A stretch of 32,010 nucleotides of DNA, taken from assembly GCA_036679605.1 (NCBI GenBank), contig JAZDCZ010000330.1, positions 1 through 32,010 of the forward strand, given 5' to 3'. Each line of letters begins with the position of its first letter. Position 1 is the first letter of the stretch. The notes below the pieces were generated by a model. The model was not told where the DNA came from. It saw nothing but the letters and a program-made list of their open reading frames with translations, and did no database searches. Source of the DNA: Gemmatimonadota bacterium. Lineage in GTDB: Bacteria > Gemmatimonadota > Gemmatimonadetes > Gemmatimonadales > GWC2-71-9. Below, piece after piece: positions 182 through 22,534 of the stretch. A program made the translations under genes and the position numbers.

Positions 182-391
182 TTAGTCGAGCTTGCTGACG
201 TTCTCGGCCGCAGGCCCCTTCTGTCCTTCAACGATGTCGAATTCTACACGCTGGCCCTCAGATAACGACTTGAAGCCGTCGCCCTGAATCGCCGAGTGGT
301 GAACGAAGCAATCCTTCTCTCCATTCTCCGGCGTGATGAAACCGAAGCCCTTGCTGTCATTGAACCACTTCACTGTTCCTGTCGTACGCAT
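182..391 (-). CDS. cspA: Cold-shock protein (CspA family), 69 aa
   Basis: [19 protein letters not shown]...CFVHHSAI...[10 protein letters not shown] contains the RNP1/RNP2 motifs. ATG at 391 has SD TAAGGAG (402-408). The ORF-track start at 508 is over-extended. Exact paralogue name uncertain. Confidence 0.97.
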
Positions 392-405
392 ATGCCGTAC
401 TCTCC

Positions 406-432
406 TTAGATTTGTTCGTCGGAGTCCGGCAC
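406..432 (-). CDS. Putative 8-aa upstream ORF (MPDSDEQI) in the csp leader
   Basis: GGAGG (440-444), 7 nt, then GTG CCG GAC TCC GAC GAA CAA ATC TAA. The TAA forms the start of the csp SD (TAAGGAG). Confidence 0.35.
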
Positions 433-550
433 AGCCGTACCTCCCGACTACTGGTCTGTCGCGGTCTATGCCCCCGCGCTGGGCTGCTGCACTGCAATTC
501 AGTTTCACCGAGCCACAGGCTAGCTGTTATTGCGGTCTAACTGGTCAAAC

Positions 551-1121: not shown

Positions 1122-2789
1122 ATGCGGGAGAGAAGAGTCGACGAGAAAACTGCGGCTAGATGGACCACAGGCGGCAAGGCTGCGCTGGCTGGCCACGCTG
1201 GGCGTGTCCAATCTCATCCCGGCTATCAGACAAGAGCAATCGGGTCCGACCCAAATCCTCTGGTCCAGCGAGTTGAAATTCTGACCGCAGAGGTCTGCAA
1301 ACTCCAATCGGTGTTGGCGCAGCTTCACAGATTCCGCTCACTCATCGACCGCAGCGGCGAGGCCATATTCGTTTCGGATTTGGTCACCGGTCGCATAGTC
1401 GACGCCAACGAGACCGCGTGCAGTTGGGTCGGCCTGACCAGAAAGAGACTGCTCTCGCTCTCGATATCCGAACTCGATCTCGATTTTCCACTCCAGTGCG
1501 AAAATGTGGTAGGAGATCACGTTACAGAGACCAGAATGTCGAGCCGACCGCTAATTCTCGGTACCGGGTCGCATCGTAGGCGCAACGGTACTTCTTTCCC
1601 CGTTGAAGTAGCGATTTCCAGCATGAGGTTCGGAGAGCGTGACTATGTGCTAAGCGTTGCCCGGGATTGCAGAGACAGGCGCTGGGCCGAGGAAGCGCTT
1701 CACGACAGCGACGAGGGTTACCGGGCACTGTTCGAGTCTACGCACGATGCCCTCTATATATCCGCTCGCGATGCCACCGTGGTAGATGTGAACCGAGCGG
1801 CCATGCAGCTATTCGGCTACTCGCGCGAAGAGTTCCTCGAGTTGGATGCGCGGCAATTGTACACTGATGCTACCGACATACATGCTTTCCGTGAAGAAGT
1901 AGAGGAGAGCGGATCCGTTCACGATCGACCAATAGAGTTTCGTGCGAAAGATGGCGAGCGGTTTCGAGGACTGCTGACGGTAACGCTACGCCACGCTAGT
2001 GATGGAAGTATTCTGGGCTATCAGTGCCTGATCCACCCGTCGACGAATAGAGCGGAACCACCGTCCCCAGCCCCCGACATTCGGGAGGCGAAAGCAGCGA
2101 CACCTGATTCAACAAATGACAAGGAAGTCGTTGCTCCGGTGATTGAAGAGGAATTCGTGGCTCCGGTGATTGTCGAAGAGGTAGATCCTGTCCCGGATGC
2201 TGTGGACCCGTCTCCGATGGCTGCAGAAGTGGTCGTGGGAACGGTGACCAGGCGGATCGTGGAAGAAATCGTGGAGCGACCCTTGAATGGCGGCACCGCC
2301 GCAGCGCCACGTCATGTTGTTTCGCAAGCTCAGACAGCCACGTCGAAAGCCCTGGCACGCGATGGCGTCGAGTCTCGTCCCTGGAAGGCAGCAGTGGTTC
2401 TTGGTGTGGCAGTTTCAGCGATCGCTTGGCTAACATTAAGATTCTATCCGTTCAGTTTCGGAGGCCGGGAGTGGGCGGTCAGCACGCAGGCGATCGGTGC
2501 TGCCCTAGTCGGACTCGGCCTGGCGGGCAAGCAGTGGCGTCGTACGGCGAGGGGTCTGGCCCTGGGTGCTGTAGTCCTTGCGGCGGCCGTTGTAGTGACG
2601 TACGCCAGCTACGTGGCGGGTCTGCCATTTGAGTTGCGCAACGTGGTACCAGAGACTTGGTCTGCGATTAAGGCCGCCATCGTGCATGTCTCTGCATTTG
2701 CGGTGGGCTTTGGGGCTATCTTCAGTAGTATCGCCTGGTATCTGTGGCGACAAACCGATGAGCTTGAACCCGGAGTCAAAGAAGCATAG
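1122..2789 (+). CDS. Tandem PAS-domain protein with acidic linker and C-terminal ~4-TM region
   Basis: Two PAS S-box repeats (FRSLIDRSGEAIFV...GRIVDANETAC...RRRNGTSFPVEV; YRALFESTHDALYI...VVDVNRAAMQLFGYSREE...KDGERF) and hydrophobic C-terminal segments. ATG 1122 is preceded by AAGGAG (1104-1109). Confidence 0.85.
   Translation: MRERRVDEKTAARWTTGGKAALAGHAGRVQSHPGYQTRAIGSDPNPLVQRVEILTAEVCKLQSVLAQLHRFRSLIDRSGEAIFVSDLVTGRIVDANETACSWVGLTRKRLLSLSISELDLDFPLQCENVVGDHVTETRMSSRPLILGTGSHRRRNGTSFPVEVAISSMRFGERDYVLSVARDCRDRRWAEEALHDSDEGYRALFESTHDALYISARDATVVDVNRAAMQLFGYSREEFLELDARQLYTDATDIHAFREEVEESGSVHDRPIEFRAKDGERFRGLLTVTLRHASDGSILGYQCLIHPSTNRAEPPSPAPDIREAKAATPDSTNDKEVVAPVIEEEFVAPVIVEEVDPVPDAVDPSPMAAEVVVGTVTRRIVEEIVERPLNGGTAAAPRHVVSQAQTATSKALARDGVESRPWKAAVVLGVAVSAIAWLTLRFYPFSFGGREWAVSTQAIGAALVGLGLAGKQWRRTARGLALGAVVLAAAVVVTYASYVAGLPFELRNVVPETWSAIKAAIVHVSAFAVGFGAIFSSIAWYLWRQTDELEPGVKEA
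2124..2180 (+). repeat. Intragenic ~27-nt tandem duplication (EVVAPVIEE / EFVAPVIVEE)
   Basis: GAAGTCGTTGCTCCGGTGATTGAAGAG followed by GAATTCGTGGCTCCGGTGATTGTCGAAGAG. Confidence 0.8.
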
Positions 2790-2973
2790 CCCAGCGCGCG
2801 CGCTCGTCCGTAACACCTCGTTATCTCTAGCTCACATAACCACATCCGCGATCGTACCCTGTCCACAACGTGCTTGCGGATCTTTGGGGAAAGGTTCCAT
2901 CAACACGTCGGGTTGGCTGTGCGTACTACGCGTAAAGGTCCCAGTTCACGACGAACCCGGTGGAGATCTCCCA

Positions 2974-4011
2974 ATGAAATACTTAGCCTCTCTTGTCCTA
3001 ACCTCGCTCGTTTGGGCCGGATCGCCGTTGGCCCCGGATACCGTAGACATCACTGAGTGGCGTGTGCCCTACAAGATGGACCAGGATAGACGAACGGTAG
3101 ATGGTTTCCCTGAATCTCCCCGCGAGAACACGCGTCCGAGGGATCCCTATGTCGATCTGCAAGGCAGAGTGTGGTTCTGTGGCCAGGCCGGCAACTATAT
3201 CGCCTATCTCGATCCGGCTACGGGAGACTTCAAACGGTACGAGATCGACGAGGGGACCCATCCACATAATCTCATCGTCGATGATAAAGGATACGTCTGG
3301 TATGCAGGCAACAGGGCAAGCCACATCGGCAGGCTCGATCCAGCCACCGGTGAGATCACGAAATTCATGATGCCTGACCCGGCTGTCACAGATCCGCATA
3401 CGCTGGTCTTCAACAGGGACGGAGACATATGGTTCACGGCGCAGCAGAGCAACGCGATCGGCAAGCTTTCGGTGTCGACGGGTGAGATTCAGCTCATCAT
3501 GGTCCCGACTCGGAGAGCACGTCCCTACGGCATTATTCTCGATTCGCATGACCGGCCTTGGGTCGCGCTGTTCGGGACCAACAAAATCGCTACGGTGAAT
3601 CCGACGACGATGGAGCTAGAAGAAATAGAACTCCCACGTGAGGCCACTCGGCCTCGCCGGATTGAAGTGACGTCAGACGACATGATCTGGTACGTCGATT
3701 ATGCGGGGGGAAGGCTTGGACGGCTGGACCCATCAACCAGGAAGGTCCAAGAATGGCTTACTCCTGGCGGTGCTGCCTCCAGGCCCTACGCAATGGTAAC
3801 AGACGACAAGGATCGCCTCTGGTTCGTGGAGTCTGAGCGGGCGGAGCCGAGCCGCGTGGTCGGCTTTGATCCGAAGGAGAACGCATTCTTTGGCATGACG
3901 ATTCTGCAGAGTGGTGGAATAACGGTTCGCCATATGGTTTTCCATGCACCGAGCCGCGAAATATGGTTTGGAACGGACGCAAACACCCTCGCCCGAGTTC
4001 GCGTTCCCTAA
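2974..4011 (+). CDS. Exported Vgb-family (virginiamycin B lyase-like) beta-propeller protein
   Basis: Signal peptide MKYLASLVLTSLVWA. Repeated blades of the type PxxxxxDxxGxxW...IGRLDPATG. GGAG SD before ATG 2974. Confidence 0.85.
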   Translation: MKYLASLVLTSLVWAGSPLAPDTVDITEWRVPYKMDQDRRTVDGFPESPRENTRPRDPYVDLQGRVWFCGQAGNYIAYLDPATGDFKRYEIDEGTHPHNLIVDDKGYVWYAGNRASHIGRLDPATGEITKFMMPDPAVTDPHTLVFNRDGDIWFTAQQSNAIGKLSVSTGEIQLIMVPTRRARPYGIILDSHDRPWVALFGTNKIATVNPTTMELEEIELPREATRPRRIEVTSDDMIWYVDYAGGRLGRLDPSTRKVQEWLTPGGAASRPYAMVTDDKDRLWFVESERAEPSRVVGFDPKENAFFGMTILQSGGITVRHMVFHAPSREIWFGTDANTLARVRVP

Positions 4012-7476: not shown

Positions 7477-8412
7477 ATGTCCAATCCGCTAACACCTTTT
7501 CTTGATCAGCAGGGTGTCTTGATATTGGATGGTGGTCTCGCCACCGAGTTGGAAGCGCGTGGTTACGATCTGAACGACGATCTCTGGTCGGCACGGGGGT
7601 TGATGGAAAGGCCCGATCTAATCGGGCAAGTTCATTCCGATTATCTGGATGCCGGTGCCGATTGCATTGTGAGCGCCAGTTACCAAGCCACTCCGCTGGG
7701 GTTCATGCGACGTGGCTTGAGTCAAGAGGAGGCTGCTGATCTGCTCGTGTTCTCGGTCCGGCTTGCCCTGGACGCTCGCGACGAATTCTGGGCAGATCCC
7801 GTTCATCAAACCCGTCGCATCAAACCGATCGTGGCGGCTAGCGTAGGTCCGTACGGTGCCTACCTGGCAGACGGCTCCGAATACACAGGCGATTACGATA
7901 TTGGAGAGCAGGCGTTGACCGACTTTCACCGTGAGCGCTGGCGAATCCTTGCGAGGAGCGGTGCGGATCTGTTTGCATGCGAGACGATTCCGTCGATCGA
8001 TGAAGCTCTGGCGTTCATGACTCTGCTGAGCGAGACGCCTCAGGTCCATGCATGGTTCAGCTTCAGTTGCGTTGATGAAACGAGAGTGAGTGACGGAACC
8101 AAGTTGGCCGAGTTGGCCCTCCGCCTTGACGACTCAGATCAGGTGGTCGCTATCGGTGTGAACTGTACTGCGCCCAGATTTATTTCAAGCCTGGTTGCAG
8201 AAGTACGTGGTGTAACCGACAAGCCGATAATCGTCTACCCCAATTCGGGAGAGCGGTTCGATGCAAATGAACGACACTGGTCGGGTGCAAAAACGCTCGA
8301 CGATTTCGCCGAGTTGAGTGTAGAGTGGCGGAATATGGGAGCCTCGATAATCGGAGGGTGCTGTCGCACGGGCCCGGCTCAGATCGGAGACTTGAGAAGG
8401 CAGCTATTGTAG
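7477..8412 (+). CDS. mmuM: Homocysteine S-methyltransferase
   Basis: LILDGGLATELEARG, ASVGPYGAYLADGSEYTG, ACETIPS, GVNC, VYPNSGE and IIGGCCRT (Zn-binding Cys). Confidence 0.93.
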   Translation: MSNPLTPFLDQQGVLILDGGLATELEARGYDLNDDLWSARGLMERPDLIGQVHSDYLDAGADCIVSASYQATPLGFMRRGLSQEEAADLLVFSVRLALDARDEFWADPVHQTRRIKPIVAASVGPYGAYLADGSEYTGDYDIGEQALTDFHRERWRILARSGADLFACETIPSIDEALAFMTLLSETPQVHAWFSFSCVDETRVSDGTKLAELALRLDDSDQVVAIGVNCTAPRFISSLVAEVRGVTDKPIIVYPNSGERFDANERHWSGAKTLDDFAELSVEWRNMGASIIGGCCRTGPAQIGDLRRQLL

Positions 8413-9059
8413 TGCAAGAACGCCACGTCACCGTCGAGAAGACTGCCCGTTACTTCACCATTGGTAATGAGGACAAGCCAAGCGAAGTATGGATCGCCTG
8501 TCACGGGTATACGCAACTGGCCCATCAATTCATTCAACTATTGGCGCCACTGGACGACGGTATGCGCTTGATCGTATGTCCCGAAGGCTTGAATCGCTTT
8601 TACACCGACCATAAATCACGACGTGTGGGTGCGGGCTGGATGACCAGCGAGGATCGCTTGGTAGAGATCGACGACTACATCCAATACTTGGACAAGCTCT
8701 ATGCTGCTGTCTTCGAGAGGGTCGATCACAGTGCCGTAAGATGCCACGTCCTCGGCTTTTCCCAGGGAGTGGCCGCGACGTGTCGCTGGGTAGTTAATGG
8801 AGGGACGGCGGTCGACCGCCTCATTATGTGGGGCGGGCTGCTACCGCCTGAGATAGACCTGATCTTGCACAAGAAGAAGCTGACGGAGTCACATCTGACT
8901 ATCGTGCTAGGGGACGAAGATGAACTCGTCAGTTCGCAAGACCGCACCAGGCAGGAAGATCAGCTACGCGAGCACGAAATTCCTTTCAAGACCATTGTGT
9001 TTGCGGGCGGACACAGATTGGACAGGACTGTGCTGGGCAGGCTAGCCGGCGGTGAATAG
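8412..9059 (+). CDS. Phospholipase/carboxylesterase-family alpha/beta hydrolase
   Basis: HGY oxyanion region, GFSQG nucleophile elbow, GDED, GGH. The GTG start overlaps the mmuM stop (TAGTG). Confidence 0.85.
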   Translation: MQERHVTVEKTARYFTIGNEDKPSEVWIACHGYTQLAHQFIQLLAPLDDGMRLIVCPEGLNRFYTDHKSRRVGAGWMTSEDRLVEIDDYIQYLDKLYAAVFERVDHSAVRCHVLGFSQGVAATCRWVVNGGTAVDRLIMWGGLLPPEIDLILHKKKLTESHLTIVLGDEDELVSSQDRTRQEDQLREHEIPFKTIVFAGGHRLDRTVLGRLAGGE

Positions 9060-9068
9060 TTTTGTCTT

Positions 9069-9650
9069 TCACTTAGTGCCCCAGGGTCCGACCTCATCCT
9101 CCGGCTCCACTCCCAAACCGTCGGCTATTCTGGTGATGTAGTTGAAGTAGCCGATCACCTGTGTAGCATCGTGAATCGCCGTGTCATCGAAGCCGTAGCC
9201 TCGCAACTTCTCGAGGTCAGCAGGGCCGATGTCGTGCTGGTTGTGTGTCAACTTGGCCGCAAATTCACAGAGTGCGTGATCTGCTGCCTCGAGTTCTGCA
9301 CTGGCCCAATTGTGAGCCACGCTGTGAACGAAATCGTCTGCTTTGGCAGGGTCGTCGAACAGATCGTCGACCTCAGCACGGAGGTCGTCGGCATGCGCCT
9401 GAGTTCAGTAGTAGCACTTGAGTTCACACGAAACGACGGTGGCAATCAGCTCTCGTTGCATTCGTGAGAGGGGAGACGGTGCCAACATGATCGCCTGATA
9501 GAAGTCCATGCTACCCTTTAGCGCTCGCGGATTGAGGCTCATGACGTGAATGATGTGCCATACCCGCCCGGCTCTTCGGATAGCTTTGTCGAATTCGGCC
9601 TTCAAGAGGCCGGTGGCTTTCTCTACTGCAACCTGCTTTATCCAGGGCAT
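9069..9650 (-). CDS. AhpD/carboxymuconolactone-decarboxylase-like peroxidase-related protein, probable selenoprotein (C79-Y-Y-U82), 193 aa
   Basis: One frame runs LSRMQRELIATVVSCELKCYY[TGA]TQAHADDLR...FAAKLT...LRGYGFDDTAIHDATQVIGYFNYITRIADGLG. The TGA (9405-9407) sits at the second Cys of the family CxxC-xxxH motif. A downstream hairpin is present. SD GGGAG lies upstream of ATG 9650. Confidence 0.85.
9368..9404 (-). promoter_or_regulatory. Candidate bacterial SECIS element
   Basis: After the UGA: ACUCAGGCGCAUGCCGA-CGACCUC-CGUGCU-GAGGUCG. This gives a 7-bp perfect stem, an apical loop starting 24 nt after the UGA, and G at loop position 2. Confidence 0.65.
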
Positions 9651-9787
9651 CTAGAATTGCTCCCACATGTCGTCCGCGTAATTTGTTCGGGTGGCCTCGC
9701 GATCCAATCGCCTAATCCGTATCTTTGCGCGCCGCCGAGATCCCGTTGGTGTCACTAAGCTTCCAATAGAGCAGAGGAGTTGTCAAC

Positions 9788-10855
9788 ATGAACCGCACCA
9801 AGTCCACCCCCGTTTACAGAACAATGATGCTGGTTGGCCTCTTGTTGAGTCCGATCGGACTTCAGGCGCAGAGTTCCGGGGAGATCGAGGAGGTCAAGAA
9901 CCAACTTTCACGTCATGTAGAGAGCTTGAGACACTCGCTTGATGTGCTTAACCGGCGGGTAGACGACGTGATGTTCTTCCAGCGCATGAGTGATGTGGCG
10001 GATATAGACATCATCACGTTCACCGGACCTCCTCGACGATACGAACCAAACCCGACGGCACAGGGAGCGGGAAACCCTCTGACCATACGCGCCTACGTGT
10101 TTGTTCCGAAAGGCCTGGATCGAACCAAGAAACAACCGTTAATCGTGTTTCCGCACGGTGGCGTGCATGGAAATTTCGGAACGGGAAATACGCATATTCT
10201 GCAGGAGATGTTGCAGCAGGGGTATACGGTAGTGGCACCCGAATATCGTGGCAGCACGGGATATGGCGGAGGATTCTACCGCGCAATCGACTACGGTGGC
10301 GTTGAAGTCGAGGATACTTACGCAGCCCGGAACGTCATGCTGGAAAATTATGAGTTTTTGGATCAAGACCGAGTCGGAATAGTGGGCTGGAGTCACGGAG
10401 GACTGCACGCTCTCATGAACATCTTCGAACATGGGAACAGCTACGCCGCTGCATACGCAGGTGTGCCGGTCAGTGACCTAATAGCTAGGATGGGATACAA
10501 GACCCAAGGATATCGCGACCTATATTCGGCGGAATATCATATCGGTAAGTCGGCGTATGAAGACGTGGAGGAATACAGGAGGCGATCACCTTCGTGGAAT
10601 GCCGACAAGTATGACGGAACGCCGCTGTTGATTCACACTAACACCAACGATCAAGATGTAAATGTGCTGGAGGTCGAACGCCTTATTCAGGCGCTGAAGG
10701 CCGCAGGCAAGCGTGGATTCGAGTTCAAGATCTATCAGGATGCCCCAGGAGGTCATGGGTTTAATCGCCTGGACACGAAATTCGCTCGTGACTCTCGGCG
10801 TGAGATTTGGCGTTTCTTGGCTCCGATTCTGCGGCCGGATAACCCAATACGATAG
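9788..10855 (+). CDS. Exported S9 (prolyl oligopeptidase-family) serine peptidase
   Basis: Signal peptide, PLIVFPHGG, PEYRGSTGYG, GWSHGG nucleophile, NDQDV, GGHGF. AGGAG SD. Confidence 0.88.
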   Translation: MNRTKSTPVYRTMMLVGLLLSPIGLQAQSSGEIEEVKNQLSRHVESLRHSLDVLNRRVDDVMFFQRMSDVADIDIITFTGPPRRYEPNPTAQGAGNPLTIRAYVFVPKGLDRTKKQPLIVFPHGGVHGNFGTGNTHILQEMLQQGYTVVAPEYRGSTGYGGGFYRAIDYGGVEVEDTYAARNVMLENYEFLDQDRVGIVGWSHGGLHALMNIFEHGNSYAAAYAGVPVSDLIARMGYKTQGYRDLYSAEYHIGKSAYEDVEEYRRRSPSWNADKYDGTPLLIHTNTNDQDVNVLEVERLIQALKAAGKRGFEFKIYQDAPGGHGFNRLDTKFARDSRREIWRFLAPILRPDNPIR

Positions 10856-12974: not shown

Positions 12975-13065
12975 ACAGTTAGTGGTGTAGTTTCGGAACC
13001 AAAGGGGGCAATTGGCGGTATTGAGAGAGGGCATTCAAGGACTGGAGACAACGACCGCGCTGCGA

Positions 13066-13893
13066 ATGAACTTATCTTACCGCCGTGTCACGATCGCCGC
13101 GATAGGGCTGGCGACGAGCCTGCCTGCCATGGCTATGTTTTCCGGCGGATCCTTCCGATGGTTATCTCCGACACCAGACTCTGTGGTCGAGCAGCCTCAA
13201 GACGCAGAGACGCCTGTTCCCGGCAGGGCTTTTTACTTCACACGAGCGGTTTACAGCGGTCAGCGGCGTGGCTTCGACCGCGGTTACGGCAGGGGTAGCT
13301 GGGCCACCGATTGGCCCAAGGCCGATATCCAATTTCTCATAGGGGTCAAGCGGCTCACGAACATCGACGCCTACGAGTACGACAATCCGGTTCGGCTCGA
13401 TGACCCAAACTTGCGCCGATACCCACTCATCTACGCTCTCGAGGTTGGGTACATGGCTCTGACAGAGCCAGAGGTCGTCGGTCTCCGAGGATACCTGTTG
13501 GCTGGCGGATTCCTGGTGATCGACGATTTTTGGGGTAGCTATCAATGGGCCAACTTTGAGCAACAGATCAGAAGAGTGGTACCGGAATTCCCGATCGTCG
13601 ACATTCCTCTCGATCATCCACTCCTCAATGCGTTCTACAACATTGACGAAATTGTGCAAGTACCCAACGTCGGAAATGGTAGGAGAGGGGGTCCGACCTG
13701 GGAACGCGATGGATTCACACCCAAACTCAAGGGCATCTTTGACGATCGGGGACGCCTCATGGTTGTCATAAACTGGAACACCGATTTGGGAGATGCATGG
13801 GAATGGGCGGAGGATCCGTGGTATCCGATCAAGTACTCTAATTTCGCCTACAGTATGGGTATCAACATGATCGTTTACGGCATGAGCCACTAG
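13066..13893 (+). CDS. DUF4159 domain protein (exported)
   Basis: WATDWPKAD, YPLIYALEVG, LRGYLLAGGFLVIDDFWG, NTDLGDAWEW, GINMIVYGMSH. Start codon uncertain (13066 or 13129). Confidence 0.82.
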   Translation: MNLSYRRVTIAAIGLATSLPAMAMFSGGSFRWLSPTPDSVVEQPQDAETPVPGRAFYFTRAVYSGQRRGFDRGYGRGSWATDWPKADIQFLIGVKRLTNIDAYEYDNPVRLDDPNLRRYPLIYALEVGYMALTEPEVVGLRGYLLAGGFLVIDDFWGSYQWANFEQQIRRVVPEFPIVDIPLDHPLLNAFYNIDEIVQVPNVGNGRRGGPTWERDGFTPKLKGIFDDRGRLMVVINWNTDLGDAWEWAEDPWYPIKYSNFAYSMGINMIVYGMSH

Positions 13894-16188
13894 ATGAGTC
13901 AGTTTTTCGAAGGCGTTTTTCAATTTCTGTTCAAGTACCGTCCTGTGGTGTTTGAGCGCGGCGATTTTGTATTTGGTGTTTCTTGGCCGGCTCTTTTGCT
14001 CATTGTCATGGCGGCTGCGGTGGTGCTACCACCTCTGGTCACGTATGGTGGCATGCGCAGCAAGCTGAGATCGCTCGATCGCGCACTGCTTACCACACTC
14101 AGAGTCACTGCTATGGGCATCCTCTTGTTTGCCTTACTCCGCCCCATGTTGGTGGTAGCCACGGTTGTACCGCAGCAGAACTTCCTAGCGGTTCTGATAG
14201 ACGACTCCCGGAGCATGCAGATCGCCGATGAAGACGGGATACCGCGAAGCGAGTTCGTAAACAAGTTGTTCGGGCCTGACGGTAGCGACGTCATGACGCA
14301 ATTGGCAGATCGTTTCAAGTTACGCTTCTACGGATTTTCGGAGAGCGCGACGCAACTCGCTAGTGCTGCAGATTTGACCTATGAGGGGCAGCAAACCAGG
14401 CTCGCTAGTGCGCTAAGCCGTGTGTCGAGTGAACTGTCGTCGGTGCCTCTTGCCGGAATCGTTTTGGTCACTGACGGAGCTGACAACTCTGCGATCCCTC
14501 TCACCGAGTCGATATTGCAACTTCGCGGGCGAAACTTACCCGTGCACGCGGTTGGGTTGGGGCGCGAACACTTTGCCAAAGATATCGAGATCACGAGCGT
14601 ACAGGCGCCGCGTCGAGTGCTTCGTGGGTCGTCGGTAGCGGTGGACGTGATGATCGTCCATTCAGGATTCAGCGGCAAAACCATTCAATTGCACGTCGAA
14701 GACGATGGGCGGATAGTCAGCACACAGGAAATCGAAATGCCGAGGGATGGTGAGGTGGTGACGGTACGAACGCACTTCACGGCCGACGAGGTGGGAGCGC
14801 GCGTCTTTCGATTCCGCGTTGTTCCTGAAGATGGCGAGTTGGTGTTGGAGAATAACTCCCGCGAGGCGTTAGTGGTCGTAGTCGACCGGCGGGAAAAGAT
14901 CCTCTACTTCGAAGGAGAACCACGATGGGAAGTGAAATTCATACGACGGGCGGTCGAGGATGACGAGAATCTCCAGATCGTAACACTGCAACAAACAGCG
15001 GAGAACAAGTTCTACCGCATCGGCGTCGATGATGAAGACGAGGTTGCGGATGGGTTTCCCAAGAGGCGTGAAGACCTGTTTGAGTACCGCGCTCTTATCT
15101 TGGGAAGTGTGAAGGCAAGTTTTTTCACGCACGATCAGCTCCAGATGATTGCAGAATTCGTGAGTCAGCGTGGGGGTGGGTTGCTGACTTTGGGGGGTAG
15201 GAATTCATTTTCGGAAGGTGGATGGGCCGGCACTCCCGTGGCTGAAGTGTTGCCGGTGGTACTTAAGCAGAAGGCCCCCGGAGAGACGTCTGAGTTCTTT
15301 GTGGAAGCGAAGGTGGCGCTGACTCCCGTTGGCCGCTCCCATCCGATAACGCAGATCGCCGACCTACCCAAGGCGTCGAGCCAACGTTGGACGGAGCTGC
15401 CACCTCTATCAATTATCAACCCCATTACAGAGACAAAACCAGGCGCGAGCACCTTGCTCACCGGCAGAGGAGATGGTGAGAACTTTATTGTTTTGGCATC
15501 GCAGCGCTACGGGCGGGGTCGGGTCTTGTCGTTTCCTGTTCAGGATTCATGGATCTGGCAGATGCACGCGGACATACCGCTGGAGGACATGACACATGAA
15601 ATGTTTTGGCGGCAGTTGCTGAGGTGGTTGATTAACTCGGTACCAGACAGGGTTTCGGCGACAGTATCCAGGGACAGGGTGGGAATACAGCAGTCGGTAG
15701 AGATAACGACTGAAGCACTTGATTCCGCCTACTTGGAGGTGAACGATGCCGACGTAGTTGCTCACGTCATCACTCCGAGTGGGTCGGAGCGCGAAGTTCC
15801 ACTCGAGTGGACTGTAGAGCGTGATGGAGAGTACAAGGCAAGCTTCGTTCCCGAGGACTACGGTATGTATGAGGTTCGCATAGATGCGGGCCGGAACGGC
15901 GCGGTGTTGGGTAGCGGTGCCTCCTACGTGCAGGTGGCCGAACCAGTAGACGAGTTTTTCGATGCGGAGATGCGCGCGTCGCTGCTCAAGCGACTGGCTG
16001 ACGAAACTGGCGGTCGTTTCTACACGCCCGAGACCGTTTCGTCACTTCCCGAGGACGTACAGTTTACTGAAAGCGGATCCACAATTCTGGAGGAGAAAGA
16101 TCTTTGGGACATGCCGGCCGTGTTCTTCTTGCTTCTTGCACTGGTCGGGGTGGAGTGGGGATACCGGCGGACCAGGGGGCTGGTGTGA
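13894..16188 (+). CDS. Membrane protein with vWA, Ig-like and glutamine-amidotransferase-like domains
   Basis: Two N-terminal TMs, MIDAS-like DDSRSM and VTDG, ILYFEGEPRWE, FVSQRGGGLLTLGG, QRYGRGR, and a C-terminal TM ending EWGYRRTRGLV. Confidence 0.8.
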   Translation: MSQFFEGVFQFLFKYRPVVFERGDFVFGVSWPALLLIVMAAAVVLPPLVTYGGMRSKLRSLDRALLTTLRVTAMGILLFALLRPMLVVATVVPQQNFLAVLIDDSRSMQIADEDGIPRSEFVNKLFGPDGSDVMTQLADRFKLRFYGFSESATQLASAADLTYEGQQTRLASALSRVSSELSSVPLAGIVLVTDGADNSAIPLTESILQLRGRNLPVHAVGLGREHFAKDIEITSVQAPRRVLRGSSVAVDVMIVHSGFSGKTIQLHVEDDGRIVSTQEIEMPRDGEVVTVRTHFTADEVGARVFRFRVVPEDGELVLENNSREALVVVVDRREKILYFEGEPRWEVKFIRRAVEDDENLQIVTLQQTAENKFYRIGVDDEDEVADGFPKRREDLFEYRALILGSVKASFFTHDQLQMIAEFVSQRGGGLLTLGGRNSFSEGGWAGTPVAEVLPVVLKQKAPGETSEFFVEAKVALTPVGRSHPITQIADLPKASSQRWTELPPLSIINPITETKPGASTLLTGRGDGENFIVLASQRYGRGRVLSFPVQDSWIWQMHADIPLEDMTHEMFWRQLLRWLINSVPDRVSATVSRDRVGIQQSVEITTEALDSAYLEVNDADVVAHVITPSGSEREVPLEWTVERDGEYKASFVPEDYGMYEVRIDAGRNGAVLGSGASYVQVAEPVDEFFDAEMRASLLKRLADETGGRFYTPETVSSLPEDVQFTESGSTILEEKDLWDMPAVFFLLLALVGVEWGYRRTRGLV

Positions 16189-17186
16189 TGCGGGCACTGG
16201 GTGGAGCGACTGTTGCCGTGTGTCTTCTGTGGCAGCCGATTATGGCGCAGACTGAGGTCGTGATAGTGAGCGGATTGGGTGGGGACAGTTACCACCGCGA
16301 CCTGTTCCACGGGTGGGCGGTGCAGATGATTGAGGCGGCAACCGATCGATTCGGGGTTCCGGTCAGCAATATCACCTACTTGGCCGAGCGACCCGAACGA
16401 GATCCCGATCTAATCGACGGCAAGTCTACGAAGAAGAACATCGAAGATGTCTTGAGTCTCTTGATCGATGCGCCGGCGCCAGACGGGATATTCATTTTGC
16501 TCATTGGACACGGTAGTTACCAGGGCGACGAATCGCGATTGAGTCTTCCAGGTCCTGACATGACGCCCAAGGATTTCGCACATGTCATTAATAGGTTCCG
16601 TTCGCGGAGAATCGTGGTGGCCAACACATCGAGTGCCAGCGGTGAGTTCATTGCGGCGCTTTCCGGGCCCGGCCGTACCATCGTGACTGCTACGAAATCC
16701 GCCTTTGAGCGAAACGACGCGATCTTCGGCAAGCATTTCATCGGTGCGTTTGCCAACGACGTGGCCGACGTAGACAAAGATGATCGGGTGTCCGTATTGG
16801 AGGCCTTCGACTACGCTCGTCGGGAAGTGGCCCGAGAGTATGAGTCCGACAAGCAACTGCTGACCGAACACGCGCAGCTCGATGACAACGGCGACGGCAA
16901 GGGGAGTTCCGAGCCAGGAGCCAACGCACCGGATGGAGCACTGGCCGCGTCGATGTTCCTGACCGGGTCTGCGGAGACCATGGTGGTGGATGCCGCGGGT
17001 GATCCTGAACTGGCGGCGCTTCATGAGAAGCAGCGAATACTACAGCAACGCATTGCCGATCTTCGAGCCCTAAAGAGCAAGACCGAGCCGGAAGTGTACC
17101 GGCGCGAGTTGGAAACACTGTTGCTGGAGTTGGCGCAAACATCGCGGGCAATTCGAAGCCGCAAGCCAGAGAGCCGGCAACCTTGA
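16188..17186 (+). CDS. Exported caspase/legumain (clan CD)-like fold protein with C-terminal coiled coil
   Basis: Signal peptide, LLIGHGS, VVANTSSASG, IVTATKS, DxDxD-type loops (DVDKDDRVSVLE, DDNGDGKG). The ATG overlaps the upstream TGA. Confidence 0.6.
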   Translation: MRALGGATVAVCLLWQPIMAQTEVVIVSGLGGDSYHRDLFHGWAVQMIEAATDRFGVPVSNITYLAERPERDPDLIDGKSTKKNIEDVLSLLIDAPAPDGIFILLIGHGSYQGDESRLSLPGPDMTPKDFAHVINRFRSRRIVVANTSSASGEFIAALSGPGRTIVTATKSAFERNDAIFGKHFIGAFANDVADVDKDDRVSVLEAFDYARREVAREYESDKQLLTEHAQLDDNGDGKGSSEPGANAPDGALAASMFLTGSAETMVVDAAGDPELAALHEKQRILQQRIADLRALKSKTEPEVYRRELETLLLELAQTSRAIRSRKPESRQP

Positions 17187-19840
17187 GACGGTTCTATCGT
17201 CCGGCGTCTGCGGCCTTCGGAGGAGCGGCTCTCCTGACATGCGTGTCGATCACTCCGGTCGTCGCGCTACAGGAGTCGGAAGCAGCCGATGCTTTCAGGA
17301 CTGGCCGCTATGACGACGCGATATCGCTGTTCACCGCTGCTACACGGAGCCAAACAGCTTCTGTGAAGGCAGCGCGAGGCTTGGTGACCGCACTCAGGTC
17401 GGTCGGTCGGTACAAGGATGCGGTAAACGCTGCACGACGGTTCGAACGGGACAACGAAGAGTCTGTCGAACTCGCCAACTCTCTTGGCGAGACCCTTTAC
17501 GTACTCGGAAGAACGGAGGATGCAGAGCGGGAGTTCTCACGGGCTTCCCAAGGGGCCTCGGACAGTCTTACAGCCGGCTATAATCTCGCGGTGCTGCACT
17601 ATGGTCGAGGCGATGTAGACCTAGCGATGCGGGAGTTCGATCGATTCATAGATCTTTACAACTCCGGTCGCGATCTATCCGCGGCCCAGCTTGCCACAGT
17701 CGCTGGAGCCGTGGATTACTTGAGCGTCACCAACCCCCAGCTTGCCAAGGACGCGCTGCGAGCATACGACGAAGCGATTGCCGCCGATCCAGGGGACCTA
17801 GACATCAGAGTATCACAGGGAGAATTGTTTCTCAAGAGATACAACGGTTCGGAGGCGAGGGCCACGTTTGAGGACGTGCTGCAGGCCAATCCACAACATG
17901 CAGGTGCGCTTCTGGGACTCGCTGCCACATCGCGGTTCGAGGGGTCATCGGGTGTGCGTGAGCTGGGGGAACGAAGCCTCGAGGTCAATCCGAACTATGC
18001 GAGTGCACGTGTTTTTTCGGCCAAACTCTTCTTGGAGCTTGAGGACTATAGGCGTGCTTCGGACGAGGTCGAACGCGTGCTGAAAGTGAATAGTGTCTCT
18101 CTCGAGGCACGAACGGTAGAAGCGGCAATCCTGTATCTGACGGGTGACGAGGCCGGGTTCGAAGACGCGGTCAAGCGAGTGCTGAGCATCAATCCACGTT
18201 ACGCGGCACTGTACACGACACTTGCCGAGGTTAGCGCGAGGAACAGGTTGTACAGTCAAGCAATTGAGTTTGCTCGGCTTGCCGTTGCTTTAGACTCGAT
18301 GTCGTGGCATGGATTTGGTCTGCTTGGCATGAATCAGTTGAGGAACGGGACCATCGCAAGTGGTAAGCAGAACCTCGAGCGTGCGTTCTCGGGCGACCCG
18401 TATGACGTGTGGACCAAGAATACCCTGGACCTGCTGGACACGTTGGAGCAATACAGTGTTACGAAGACGGCGCGCTTCAGACTGGTCATCGATGCAAAGG
18501 AATCCGAAATACTGTCGCTTTATTTCGGCGATCTGGCAGAAGAGGCGTACGACAGGATGGCAGCAAAGTACGGTTACCATCCGACGACTCCGATTCGTAT
18601 CGAGGTGTTCGCCAACCATGCCGACTTTTCGGTTCGAACGGTTGGATTGGTCGGGTTGGGTGCACTCGGAGTCAGTTTCGGACCTGTAATTGCAATGGAC
18701 TCTCCATCATCCCGATCCGTTGGGGATTTCAATTGGGGCTCGACGCTGTGGCACGAACTAGCTCACACCTTTCACCTCGGCATGACGAAGCACCGGGTTC
18801 CTCGTTGGTTCACCGAGGGGCTAGCCGTGTTCGAGGAGCGGCAGGCGCGGGCCGGCTGGGGTGACGACGTCACTCCGGGGTTCTTGGTGGCCTTCCAAGG
18901 TGGCATGCTTGTGCCCGTGAGCGAGCTGAACAACGGTTTCATGCGGCCGGAGTATCCCGAACAGGTGGGGTATTCCTACTACGAGGCATCGTTGGTGTGT
19001 GAGCTAATCGCAAGAGACCATGGTTTCCAGGCAATTGTTGGCATCTTGAGAGCCTATGGTGAGGGAAAGAGCACTGCCGAAGCGTTTAACTCAGTCTTGA
19101 ACACAGACCTGGCGAGTTTCGACGAGTACTTCGACCAGTATGTGAGGGATCGCTTTGCCGGCCCGCTGGCCGCACTCAAAATGGCAGCGCCGGGAGATAG
19201 TAGTTCGCCAGTGACCCGAGACGACGTGATGCGGCGGGCGCGACAGAATCCGGGAGATTTTCTCGCACAGCTGGGCATGGGCAGAATGCTACTCGAGCAA
19301 GGACGGTTTAACGAGGCCGCTCCGTTCCTGGAACAGGCCAAGCGGTTGTTTCCCGAGTACGGCGGGTCTGACAGTCCGCACTGGTATTTGTCACAACTGA
19401 ATGTGAGAGCGGGTGACTCGACGGCCGCCGAACAAAATTTGGCCGACCTGACCATGATCAACGAGCAGCACTACCAGGCGCGCGTGGAACTAGCCAACCT
19501 GCGGGAGGCGTTGCATGATCATGCAGGCGCTGCCAAAACGCTAGGTGAAGTGAGATACATATATCCCTTGGAAGTCCCCGATCACATTCGCCTGGTGGAA
19601 CTGTACGCGCGTGTGGGTGAATGGAGAGATGCGATCCTGGAGCGGCGCGCGATTGTGGCGTTGAACCCCGTCGATCGTGCGGAGGCGCTATTCCAGCTTG
19701 CGAAGACCTACTTCGAGGCGGGTGACATTGCCAATGCGCACAGCAGCGTCATCGATGCTCTCGAAGGGGCTCCGAATTTTGAGGAGGCCCAGGACCTGTT
19801 ATTGGCGATACATGTTAAGCGCAGCGGAGGAGACCGCTAG
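17183..19840 (+). CDS. TPR-repeat protein with central MA-clan (gluzincin) metallopeptidase domain
   Basis: Signal peptide, multiple TPR-like repeats, HELAH followed by RWFTEGLA. The TTG start overlaps the upstream stop. Confidence 0.85.
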   Translation: MRRFYRPASAAFGGAALLTCVSITPVVALQESEAADAFRTGRYDDAISLFTAATRSQTASVKAARGLVTALRSVGRYKDAVNAARRFERDNEESVELANSLGETLYVLGRTEDAEREFSRASQGASDSLTAGYNLAVLHYGRGDVDLAMREFDRFIDLYNSGRDLSAAQLATVAGAVDYLSVTNPQLAKDALRAYDEAIAADPGDLDIRVSQGELFLKRYNGSEARATFEDVLQANPQHAGALLGLAATSRFEGSSGVRELGERSLEVNPNYASARVFSAKLFLELEDYRRASDEVERVLKVNSVSLEARTVEAAILYLTGDEAGFEDAVKRVLSINPRYAALYTTLAEVSARNRLYSQAIEFARLAVALDSMSWHGFGLLGMNQLRNGTIASGKQNLERAFSGDPYDVWTKNTLDLLDTLEQYSVTKTARFRLVIDAKESEILSLYFGDLAEEAYDRMAAKYGYHPTTPIRIEVFANHADFSVRTVGLVGLGALGVSFGPVIAMDSPSSRSVGDFNWGSTLWHELAHTFHLGMTKHRVPRWFTEGLAVFEERQARAGWGDDVTPGFLVAFQGGMLVPVSELNNGFMRPEYPEQVGYSYYEASLVCELIARDHGFQAIVGILRAYGEGKSTAEAFNSVLNTDLASFDEYFDQYVRDRFAGPLAALKMAAPGDSSSPVTRDDVMRRARQNPGDFLAQLGMGRMLLEQGRFNEAAPFLEQAKRLFPEYGGSDSPHWYLSQLNVRAGDSTAAEQNLADLTMINEQHYQARVELANLREALHDHAGAAKTLGEVRYIYPLEVPDHIRLVELYARVGEWRDAILERRAIVALNPVDRAEALFQLAKTYFEAGDIANAHSSVIDALEGAPNFEEAQDLLLAIHVKRSGGDR

Positions 19841-19842
19841 AC

Positions 19843-20604
19843 ATGGTGTCGGGTAAGAAAACCATGCTGCTAGGTTTGCTACTGATTGCGACGACCGCGT
19901 CCAGCGCCGAAGCGCAACGCTGGGATGGCGGGTCTGACTTTACGGAGTATAACGTGCCCTACGATGGCCGGTTCACGTTTGTTCGAATCAGTTTTAGCGC
20001 GCTATCGCAATGGGGTAGGCGGCGACGTGACCTCAAGTGGGATCACGACTGGCCCATTGCCGAAAGCAACCTAATGAAGCTGCTCAATGAATTGACGTAT
20101 GTTCGACCGTTTATGGAGGGTAGCAACATTCTAGCGGCCGACGATCCCAATCTGTTCAACTATCCCGTGGGGTACGTTTCGGAACCCGGTTTTTGGACCG
20201 TCTCAGAGGACGAGATTAGAGGTCTGAGGAACTATCTGTTAAAGGGAGGGTTCCTGATCTTTGACGATTTTGGCGGCGGATACGAGTGGGCGAATTTCCT
20301 TGATAAGATGAATAGAGTATTGCCCGACGCCATCCCCGTCCGGCTCGATCTATCGCATGCGATCTTTCACTCGTTCTTCGATATCGAATCTCTGGATTAC
20401 CTCCCATCGTATCGGGGACTACCGGAGTATTGGGGTATTTTTGAGGACAATGATCCGGAAAAGCGTCTAATGGCGATCATTAACTATAACAACGACGTGG
20501 GAGAATACTGGGAGTACTCGGACACGGGTTACACGCTTGTTGATCTAACCAACGAGGCGTATAAACTCGGTATCAACTATGTCGTCTACGCCATGACTCA
20601 CTAA
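19843..20604 (+). CDS. DUF4159 domain protein (second paralogue)
   Basis: WDHDWPIAE, YPVGYVSEPG, LRNYLLKGGFLIFDDF, NNDVGEYWE, GINYVVYAMTH. Clearly homologous to 13066-13893. Confidence 0.85.
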   Translation: MVSGKKTMLLGLLLIATTASSAEAQRWDGGSDFTEYNVPYDGRFTFVRISFSALSQWGRRRRDLKWDHDWPIAESNLMKLLNELTYVRPFMEGSNILAADDPNLFNYPVGYVSEPGFWTVSEDEIRGLRNYLLKGGFLIFDDFGGGYEWANFLDKMNRVLPDAIPVRLDLSHAIFHSFFDIESLDYLPSYRGLPEYWGIFEDNDPEKRLMAIINYNNDVGEYWEYSDTGYTLVDLTNEAYKLGINYVVYAMTH

Positions 20605-20615
20605 CTAGGAGAGAT

Positions 20616-21644
20616 ATGTCGACCCAACCTACGGAACTCGATGCGGCAGACGACATCGAACTAGCCGATCGTTTGAGGAGTGGTAAGGACAGGATCCTTT
20701 CAGAGCTTCGGAAGCTCATAGTCGGCCAGGACGACGTCATTGATCAAGTGCTGCTGTCTCTCTTTGTAGGGGGCAATAGTCTCATAATCGGCGTGCCCGG
20801 ATTGGCGAAGACCCTACTGATACACACATTCGCACAGGTACTGGATCTAGACTTTTCCCGAATCCAGTTTACGCCCGACCTCATGCCGTCCGACATTACG
20901 GGCACAGATCTCGTTCAGGAGGATCCCGATACGCACCAACGCAAGATGGTCTTCATGCGGGGGCCGATCTTCAGCAACATAGTTCTCGCCGATGAGATCA
21001 ACCGGACGCCGCCCAAGACACAGGCCGCCTTGCTGGAGGCGATGCAAGAGCACCAGGTAACCGTCCAGGGCAGGACCTACACGCTGGACGAACCGTTCTT
21101 CGTATTCGCTACCCAGAACCCGATTGAACTGGAAGGTACGTATCCGCTTCCCGAGGCACAGCTAGACCGCTTTATGTTCAATATTATCATGGAGCACCTG
21201 CCGGAGGACGAGGAACTCGAGGTTGTGCGGAAGACCACTGCCATACAGAGTCATGACCTAGAGCATGCCGTGACTGGAAGTGACATTGTCGCCTTTCAAG
21301 AGTTAGTTCGAAAAGTTCCGGTGTCCGATCCCGTTCTGCGCTATGCGTTGGATCTTGCTCGTACGACTCGGCCCAGTGAGAACGGTTGTCCTGATTTCAT
21401 AAAGCGATGGGTTTCATACGGTGCCAGCGTTCGGGCAGCACAGTATTTGATATTGGGTGCCAAGGCCCGTGCTCTGATGAACGGTAGCTACCACGTAAAC
21501 CTCGAAGATATCCGAGCTTTGGCGCATCCGGTTTTGCGACACCGCATCCTGACGAACTTTCATGCTGAGTCCGAGCAAGTGACCACCGATTCGCTGATCG
21601 ACAAACTCTTGGACGTAGTGCCTATTCCGCAGTCCGGAATGTGA
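20616..21644 (+). CDS. moxR: MoxR-family AAA+ ATPase
   Basis: Walker A GVPGLAKT, RIQFTPDLMPSDITG, Walker B VLADEINRTPPKTQAALLEAMQE, ATQNPIELEGTYPLPEAQLDRF. Confidence 0.96.
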   Translation: MSTQPTELDAADDIELADRLRSGKDRILSELRKLIVGQDDVIDQVLLSLFVGGNSLIIGVPGLAKTLLIHTFAQVLDLDFSRIQFTPDLMPSDITGTDLVQEDPDTHQRKMVFMRGPIFSNIVLADEINRTPPKTQAALLEAMQEHQVTVQGRTYTLDEPFFVFATQNPIELEGTYPLPEAQLDRFMFNIIMEHLPEDEELEVVRKTTAIQSHDLEHAVTGSDIVAFQELVRKVPVSDPVLRYALDLARTTRPSENGCPDFIKRWVSYGASVRAAQYLILGAKARALMNGSYHVNLEDIRALAHPVLRHRILTNFHAESEQVTTDSLIDKLLDVVPIPQSGM

Positions 21645-22534
21645 GACCCTCTAGCTTCCTCGATCCCAAGGTGTTGGCCAGGATAGACAATCTCGAACTC
21701 CTGGCGCGGACGGTAGTGGACGGTTTTATCAACGGTCTGCACCATTCGCCCTATCTTGGCCTATCCGTCGATTTTGCCGAGCACCGCCCGTATATGCCGG
21801 GCGATGACATACGAAGAATCGATTGGAAGGTGTTCGGTCGAACGGATCGATTCTATGTCAAGGAATTCGAGGCCGACACCAACGCGAATTTCAGTATCCT
21901 GTTGGATATTTCGCGATCGATGGACTATGGAAGCACCGGTATCACAAAGCTCGATTATGGCCGCTACTTGGCTGCGTGCCTGGCGTACTTCTCTCGACAA
22001 CAGAGAGACCGAGTCGGAATAATCACGTTCGATGATGACATCGTAGACTTCGTACCTGTATCGGCCAAGCATCTCGACATCGTACTGCACACAATAGACT
22101 CCCTTGCTTCGACCAAAGCCGGGAATCTGTCCGGACCCTTGCTAAAAGTTGCCGAAATCATTACGCGGCGGAGCATACTGGTGCTCATTTCCGATCTCTA
22201 CGAAGATCCTGGAGAGGTGCTTGACTCGCTGAGCAGGCTGAGGTTCAAGGGAAATGATATAATAGTGTTTCACCTGCTCGATCCGGCCGAGGTGGAGTTT
22301 CCTTTTGATGAGGCGGCGTACTTCGAAGATCTTGAGACCGCGCAACGAATACCTATAGTGCCCGAGACTCTTCGGGAAGAGTATCGATCAATGATGTCCG
22401 ACCACATGAGCAAGATGTCTAAGCGTCTCGTCGATGGCCAGATTGACTATCTCCAAGTAAACACTTCAACACCGCTCGACTACGCACTGTTTGAGTACCT
22501 GTCGCGTAGGGAGCGCATGAGCCGGGTGCGCTAG
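21641..22534 (+). CDS. DUF58 domain / vWA protein
   Basis: GLHHSPYLGLSVDFAEHRPYMPGDDIRRIDWK, YVKEFE, DISRSM, ISD. Confidence 0.93.
   Translation: MRPSSFLDPKVLARIDNLELLARTVVDGFINGLHHSPYLGLSVDFAEHRPYMPGDDIRRIDWKVFGRTDRFYVKEFEADTNANFSILLDISRSMDYGSTGITKLDYGRYLAACLAYFSRQQRDRVGIITFDDDIVDFVPVSAKHLDIVLHTIDSLASTKAGNLSGPLLKVAEIITRRSILVLISDLYEDPGEVLDSLSRLRFKGNDIIVFHLLDPAEVEFPFDEAAYFEDLETAQRIPIVPETLREEYRSMMSDHMSKMSKRLVDGQIDYLQVNTSTPLDYALFEYLSRRERMSRVR

Follow-up and report, generated by a model that had tools for sequence, protein, structure and literature searches.

A predicted AhpD-like selenoprotein gene in a Gemmatimonadota genome, with an in-frame UGA at codon 82 and a conserved SECIS-type hairpin

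Selenoproteins of the AhpD-like family have been catalogued from sequence data since 2005. The Sargasso Sea survey of that year recorded an 'AhpD-like protein, CXXU' with 27 sequences (PMC1088965), the GOS survey of 2008 an 'AhpD-like 1, COG2128, CxxU' with 299 sequences (PMC2398784), and the family also appears in the tables of PMC1794560. Table 1 of a 2026 review places 'AhpD-like protein, TIGR01926, CxxU' in the group 'Predicted with high confidence' and not among the experimentally verified selenoproteins (PMC13188914). BSepDB has a browsable page for the family (PMC13326102), in which the clade described here may already be included; the term 'Gemmatimonad' is absent from the main text of both papers, whose supplements may list it. 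Judged by title, the literature on Gemmatimonad selenocysteine (Sec) or selenoproteins contained nothing on the AhpD-like family and, judged by listings, biochemical work on an AhpD-like protein with Sec was not found either. The statement of a first-pass annotation of the present DNA that such proteins are known from comparative genomics was thus borne out for both the family and its CxxU motif.

Among the Cys-containing counterparts, the proton-relay residues are Glu36, Cys48, Tyr50, Cys51, and His55 in Pseudomonas aeruginosa PA0269 and Glu118, Cys130, His132, Cys133, and His137 in Mycobacterium tuberculosis AhpD (PMC3141380). PA0269 reduces H2O2 weakly (PMC3141380), lipoyl proteins act as reductants for the mycobacterial AhpD, and loss of Deinococcus radiodurans DR1765 leads to greater H2O2 sensitivity (PMC8945050). 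A different activity is represented by the tetrabromopyrrole debrominase Bmp8, described as a dehalogenating CMD homologue and located within a bromopyrrole biosynthesis cluster (PMC7918430). The gene analyzed here adds a member to the known, computationally predicted selenoprotein family (TIGR01926/COG2128), and its recoding is textbook. It shares with that family the CxxU motif, a single Sec, a SECIS-type hairpin after the UGA, and widespread Cys homologues, and no categorical difference from it was found.

The window, i.e., the whole stretch of 32,010 nucleotides analyzed (contig JAZDCZ010000330.1 of assembly GCA_036679605.1), carries the gene on its minus strand. An ATG at position 9650 starts 81 codons that are ended by an in-frame TGA (9407–9405, codon 82), beyond which 111 codons stay open in the same frame up to a terminal TGA (9071–9069). 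The internal TGA stands in the context VVSCELKCYY-TGA-TQAH. The 83-aa ORF called at 9320–9069 is the tail of the frame opened at 9650, and the read-through product has 193 aa. The first-pass annotation had described the same arrangement, with the 81-aa and 83-aa ORFs sharing one frame and interrupted only by the TGA at codon 82, and the sequence confirmed it. The features are as follows (homologue counts refer to the best 80 of 240 confirmed relatives; counts of 81 include the window gene):

9069..9650, minus strand: predicted AhpD-like (TIGR01926, 'peroxidase-related enzyme') selenoprotein gene, 193 aa, from the ATG at 9650 to the terminal TGA at 9071–9069
9660..9664, minus strand: putative ribosome-binding-site-like, purine-rich GGGAG, read in the sequence about 10 nt upstream of the ATG
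9450..9452, minus strand: Glu67, equivalent in the proton relay to Glu36 of PA0269 and Glu118 of AhpD; 80/80 homologues
9426..9428, minus strand: Cys75, the 'extra' Cys of the first-pass annotation; 0/80 homologues
9414..9416, minus strand: Cys79, the Cys that opens CxxU, equivalent to Cys48 of PA0269 and Cys130 of M. tuberculosis AhpD; 80/80 homologues
9405..9407, minus strand: internal TGA at codon 82, predicted to encode selenocysteine and aligned with the second Cys in CxxCxxxH; TGA in 80/80 homologues
9393..9395, minus strand: His86, proton-relay counterpart of PA0269 His55 and AhpD His137, between the two called ORFs; 80/80 homologues
9368..9387, minus strand: SECIS-type hairpin with a 7-bp stem and a 6-nt loop, −10.2 kcal/mol, loop 24 nt past the UGA
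9267..9269, minus strand: Cys128, near-invariant in the clade; 81/81 genes, Ala in locus L033

Against the TIGR01926 profile (cut-off 81.8 bits), the read-through protein scored 127.4 bits over model positions 1–178 of 178, and the separate halves fell below the cut-off with 46.1 and 60.2 bits; the shared frame is thus no coincidence. As anticipated in the first-pass annotation, gene calling had split the gene: the 81-aa and 83-aa halves are recorded publicly as separate proteins, and 81-aa halves are likewise recorded separately for 5/5 relatives tried. The full-length 193-aa form was not found in protein records by a look-up that is blind to records bearing U. A contig of another assembly (run X1), possibly of the window's own source sample, showed 0 differences over 801 bases to window positions 9000–9800. 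Among the matches listed for contigs of three other runs (X2–X4) there was no difference at 9405–9407, which was not counted as evidence, and no RNA run occurred among the sequencing runs listed for the gene.

The gene stands alone. A divergent S9 peptidase gene starts at 9788, a convergent alpha/beta hydrolase gene ends at 9059, and a scan of positions 8900–9900 for promoters and terminators found neither. Clustering of ORFs within 4 kb of the homologues by BLASTP gave no neighbor recurring across phyla; recurring neighbors were confined to small clades or were antisense shadows. Elsewhere in the window, a homocysteine S-methyltransferase gene (7477–8412, plus strand; NF007020, 409.9 bits, above cut-off) lies two genes away; enzymes related to homocysteine S-methyltransferase methylate selenocysteine. 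A cold-shock domain gene occupies 182–508 (minus strand), and a beta-propeller gene of the Vgb lyase family at 2629–4011 (plus strand) scored 94 bits vs. 600, far under the resistance-gene cut-offs. Positions 13012–28076 (plus strand) hold a MoxR-vWA type operon with two DUF4159 genes and genes for glutamine-amidotransferase-like, TPR/peptidase MA, MoxR AAA ATPase, DUF58, BatA/vWA, and DUF4175 proteins.

Conservation was assessed with the best 80 of 240 confirmed relatives (53–78% identity) from a scan of 185,579 species genomes with six seed patterns, none of which required a TGA. By their titles, the 80 derive from Gemmatimonadota, Chloroflexota, Planctomycetota, Acidobacteriota, and others, the best named homologue being from a Gemmatimonadales MAG (78% identity). 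All 80 had TGA at codon 82 and no other stop within the aligned region, with Glu67, Cys79, and His86 invariant; these homologues are related by descent and do not represent 80 independent events. Homologues with Cys or TGA at codon 82 and with conservation on both sides, a check proposed in the first-pass annotation, were found. Mean identity across the 81 genes was 58% before the TGA and 61% after it. Values of pN were 0.29 before and 0.26 after, at pS of 0.72 and 0.74, which are near saturation. The relaxed selection downstream of the TGA that the first-pass annotation had named as grounds for abandoning its reading was not seen, since purifying selection acted on both flanks. A nonsense mutation, a pseudogene, or an assembly error would have to be considered in a draft genome with 6.3% contamination. 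Because the same TGA recurs in these best 80 of 240 relatives at 53–78% identity, with purifying selection before and after it, we regard this explanation as refuted and its probability as negligible; the separate assembly without differences, possibly from the same sample, also speaks against it.

The two protein records could also be taken at face value: if UGA were a true stop in a split CMD/AhpD gene, the locus would make two small proteins that assemble, and both halves do stand as separate proteins in public collections. A true stop would be expected to change to TAA or TAG over time, as has happened at the ends of 31/81 of these genes (terminal TGA 50, TAG 20, TAA 11), whereas the internal codon is TGA in 81/81. 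There is also no conserved restart for a second protein, the first in-frame ATG, GTG, or TTG occurring at 17 different codons or being absent, and the invariant His86, Asp89, Leu90, Arg91, and Glu93 fall between the called ORFs. Two separate products are accordingly very improbable.

In a sample of the phylum, which overlaps with the homologue set, 130 of 301 genomes matched the TIGR01926-type profile of the clade. One TGA was present in 145 of the 150 matches listed (47 places lay beyond these), and its position was checked in 44 of 48 that were fetched. A closer look at 76 loci gave 74 that cover the codon-82 site, with 70 TGA and 4 Cys. In the wider family, 71 of 111 database stretches aligned at the motif read C-x-x-C-x-x-x-H, and in solved Cys homologues the internal UGA aligns with the second Cys of CxxCxxxH. 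The proposal in the first-pass annotation of a CxxxCxxU motif did not hold: Cys75 is present as described but is private to this gene, and the motif was rejected. Four clade members, L177 (genome G239) and L179–L181, had a fragmented match or lacked the first half, possibly through frameshifts or assembly errors.

The host genome (G000; draft, 96.5% complete, 6.3% contamination) contains selA (505 bits), selB (349.8 bits), and selD (365 bits), all above cut-offs, and a tRNA-Sec (selC) of 97 nt (72.5 bits). All four genes that the first-pass annotation had suggested searching for were thus present, and selD itself has an in-frame TGA. In tetranucleotide distance from the genome median, the four contigs with this machinery rank 3, 19, 26, and 35 of 77, and therefore do not look like contaminants; the window's contig ranks 36. 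The formate dehydrogenase gene (FdhA) also reads across an in-frame TGA (1332.9 bits). A hairpin filter by itself passed 5460 of 38114 in-frame TGAs and served only to choose candidates. Of 12 further hand-picked ones, nine matched redox families across the TGA, two matched nothing, and one was unclear. In the nine, FdhA, HMA, SCO, and OsmC were represented once each, TIGR01926 twice (153 and 82.6 bits), and Prx-like proteins three times. AhpD-like proteins of the genome comprised three with Sec and one Cys paralogue (L025, contig C357).

Predicted selenoproteins outside the AhpD-like family in the same genome (L131–L135, L137, L141, L011) include an HMA/MerP-like protein (UxxC), an SCO1/SenC-like protein, three Prx-like proteins, FdhA, an OsmC-like protein, and SelD. 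A TUGCC candidate on contig C93 is presumably DUF411-like. In L136 (C125:13008–15638), an in-frame TGA links a 260-aa region without known match to a multicopper oxidase, and may be a Sec codon or separate two genes; this locus adjoins the SCO-like candidate L132 on a compositionally deviant contig.

Reading of UGA as Trp or another standard residue, through an altered code or a suppressor tRNA, was considered because contig C343 carries, according to ARAGORN, another tRNA with a UCA anticodon (71 nt), and because 6 of the 111 aligned database stretches read C-x-x-W-x-x-x-H, the codon being TGG or a TGA under code 4. In this genome, TGA ends 884 of 1889 long ORFs, a set that may include antisense frames, and codon 82 aligns with Cys, not Trp, in the solved homologues and in the 71 stretches mentioned above. 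Contig C343 is the most deviant of the 77, and the tRNA on it can alternatively be read as tRNA-Glu(UUC). We consider a standard residue at this codon no more credible than two separate products, and thus highly improbable. Some database proteins of full length (P0035, P0036, P0039, P0042) have Trp at position 82, which may reflect a TGA read under code 4 or a genuine TGG codon; a metagenome scan for the codon behind them returned 4 distant loci only. C343 itself (155 kb; L143–L145) has low coding density and 24 tRNA genes in arrays, as well as ORFs that we take to be topoisomerase VI B-like and TROVE-like, and probably represents a large element that is phage-like or was mis-binned. The 'tRNA-SeC(tca)' of this contig (115749–115819), which has a 5-bp anticodon stem when parsed as tRNA-Glu(UUC), could conceivably be a UGA suppressor.

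In the bSECIS model, a stem of 4–16 bp carries a loop of 3–9 nt at 16–37 nt from the UGA, with G in the first two loop positions and a free energy of at most −7.5 kcal/mol (PMC13188914). Evaluated with our own script, not with bSECISearch, the hairpin of the window agreed with every element of this model; G occupies loop position 2 (window 9379) and is followed by U. Single-sequence folding gave a region that was not unusually stable (z −0.4 to −1.75) and, not being significant, was rejected as proof of a SECIS element. Hairpins of −10 kcal/mol or lower are also seen downstream of control sites, namely 150 of 8391 Cys codons and 17 of 878 terminal TGAs. As about 2% of control codons have one as good, the hairpin counts only via its conservation.

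This conservation was pronounced. RNAalifold on the 81 genes returned the same seven pairs unaided, 99.4% of 490 cells pair compared to 26–48% for slid structures, and none of 500 shuffles, which ignore kinship, reached the observed value. The hairpin encodes the residues around D89-L90-R91-A92-E93-V94, and the wobble base of Asp89 covaries with the first base of codon 94 (C-G 46, U-A 30, U-G 5, C-A 0). Since C-A was never seen, Ile94 is found only with the GAT form of Asp89 and never with GAC, so that a silent change in the Asp89 codon is coupled to a Val/Ile change at 94. The U-A state required about 7 changes on a quick tree, which was built with the Val/Ile column included, and at least 3 were forced by starred branches. 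Codon choice was similarly constrained: Leu90 was CTC in 80/81 (background 30%), Glu93 GAG in 81/81 (66%), and Arg91 CGG or CGT only in 81/81 (43%). TGA aside, the codons of Leu90 and Glu93 were the most fixed among the conserved residues scored.

The position of the hairpin also distinguishes clades. In the window clade, recognized by its HAHDLR-x-E motif, 24 nt separate the UGA from the loop, and the Leu-Arg codons form part of the 5' arm. The more distant paralogous clades that co-occur with it in the same genomes have a different register: their loop follows the UGA by 16–17 nt, and the Leu-Arg codons belong to the 3' arm. The two TGA-containing paralogues of the host genome, L138 (C65:4578–5141) and L139 (C161:68529–69185), have their loops at this shorter distance. 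A short insertion before helix 5 and the near-invariant Cys128 are further features of the window clade.

Of the 80 host genomes of the homologues, 76 contain selA and 3 of the remaining 4 contain selB, so that selA or selB was present in 79; in the last (G101), selA, selB, and tRNA-Sec were not found, yet its homologue contains the TGA. Elsewhere, G343 (97% complete), in which neither selA nor selB was found, has TGT at the codon-82 position, a Cys form. In G054 (85% complete) neither gene was found, yet the homologue match includes a TGA somewhere, and G049 and G057, without selA or selB above cut-off, gave distant stop-free matches only. G370 and G383 carry Cys forms although sel genes are present. 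The Cys (TGC) homologue of G370, a genome with both selA and selB (L175; contig C79), still has a 7-bp stem-loop where the SECIS would lie, which may be left over from a Sec-to-Cys change. Taken with the sel genes, the invariant TGA aligned with Cys, the two-sided conservation, and the covarying hairpin, the UGA at codon 82 is very likely decoded as Sec, as the first-pass annotation had proposed from the sequence.

An AlphaFold model built with 55 of the 81 sequences and with U entered as C had a pLDDT of 95.5 and a pTM of 0.91. Foldseek matched it to 2PFX, 3C1L, 6K40 (DR1765), 2PRR, and 2OYO at TM 0.79–0.87 and more weakly to PA0269, the debrominase Bmp8, and Sestrin2. The five closest structures share with the window protein the all-helical fold, 24–32% identity, and the E...CxxCxxxH and FN-x-x-x-R motifs, differing in having Cys at the UGA site and Leu or Ala in the Cys128 column; the clade profile scored DR1765 at E 1e-36. 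M. tuberculosis AhpD and PA0269 are distant in sequence (profile E 0.16 and 1e-5, respectively), and the window gene, unlike these systems, has no ahpC neighbor. The conserved relay set E67, C79, Y81, U82, and H86 nevertheless has the AhpD spacing (Glu, Cys, Tyr/His, Cys, His) and fold, with the catalytic residues spaced E-12-C-3-U-4-H as in both proteins. The local motif CYYUT is near-identical to that of the NF041238 AhpD_rel_CFYUT (seleno)protein (1.9e-18); membership in that family was rejected at 66.9 bits vs. a cut-off of 175, the 193 aa covering only positions 152–338 of 357 in the model.

Cys128 is likely a buried structural residue, as its column is mostly hydrophobic in the wider family (L 66, C 18, V 9, I 8, A 5, M 3, F 1, and T 1 in 111 stretches). 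A redox role was not supported by this column, in which Cys also occurs in 18/111.

The locus very likely encodes, as a single gene, a Sec82 AhpD-like enzyme that would reduce peroxides or protein disulfides via Cys79-x-x-Sec82. In the proposed mechanism, the SelA/SelB/SelC/SelD system of the host would decode UGA 82, with SelB carrying Sec-tRNA, binding the G-containing hairpin loop 24 nt downstream, and delivering Sec at the UGA to give the 193-residue product. The Sec82 selenolate, held by the His86-Glu67 relay, would then attack the oxidant, the first-attacking position being chosen as for the Cys of AhpD. Cys79 would resolve the oxidized Sec82 to a selenenylsulfide, which a cellular dithiol would re-reduce. 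By analogy with its relatives, peroxide or disulfide reduction is probably also the physiological role, and the Prx-like selenoproteins of the host are possible clients. We take the 'peroxidase' label from homology; the weak activity of PA0269, the absence of a neighbor recurring across phyla, and the place of the family outside the experimentally verified selenoproteins speak against a firm choice of substrate.

Sec could also be inserted for a job other than peroxide removal, such as Bmp8-like reductive dehalogenation or detoxification of reactive halogens or metalloids. The model matches Bmp8 (6OHI, 6OHJ) in fold at TM 0.72–0.75 and E of about 1e-4, and the dehalogenating activity ascribed to that CMD homologue favors this idea (PMC7918430). 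Close relatives of the window gene occur in marine sediment sequencing runs. The three Sec and one Cys AhpD-like paralogues of the host, together with its several Prx-like selenoproteins, suggest differing substrates. Sec suits dehalogenation, as in deiodinases. Sequence argues against this role: Bmp8 is only 15–16% identical and escapes the clade profile at a threshold as loose as E 10, compared to 1e-36 for DR1765, so that a Bmp8-type assignment was rejected as a match in fold only. Bmp8 moreover belongs to a biosynthesis cluster, whereas the window gene stands alone, with no halogenase or other pathway gene recurring beside it. A role of this kind is therefore unlikely. Less likely still is the specific proposal that the clade comprises Se-dependent reductive dehalogenases with an AhpD fold akin to that of Bmp8, which would be the bacterial equivalent of Sec deiodinases and use Sec82, Cys79, and perhaps Cys128; if true, such enzymes would be spread in Gemmatimonadota, Anaerolineae, and Planctomycetota, hidden by annotation splitting.

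For the preferred reading, a Sec82 AhpD-like enzyme reducing peroxides or disulfides, the hairpin offers a clean case of mRNA structure steering protein sequence, with paralogues employing two hairpin registers. Public records carry the clade as 81-aa 'hypothetical' fragments, although well over a third of the sampled phylum genomes match it. As the AhpD-like family has predicted status in the 2026 review, an activity obtained by expressing the protein would be the first for this common family of bacterial selenoproteins.
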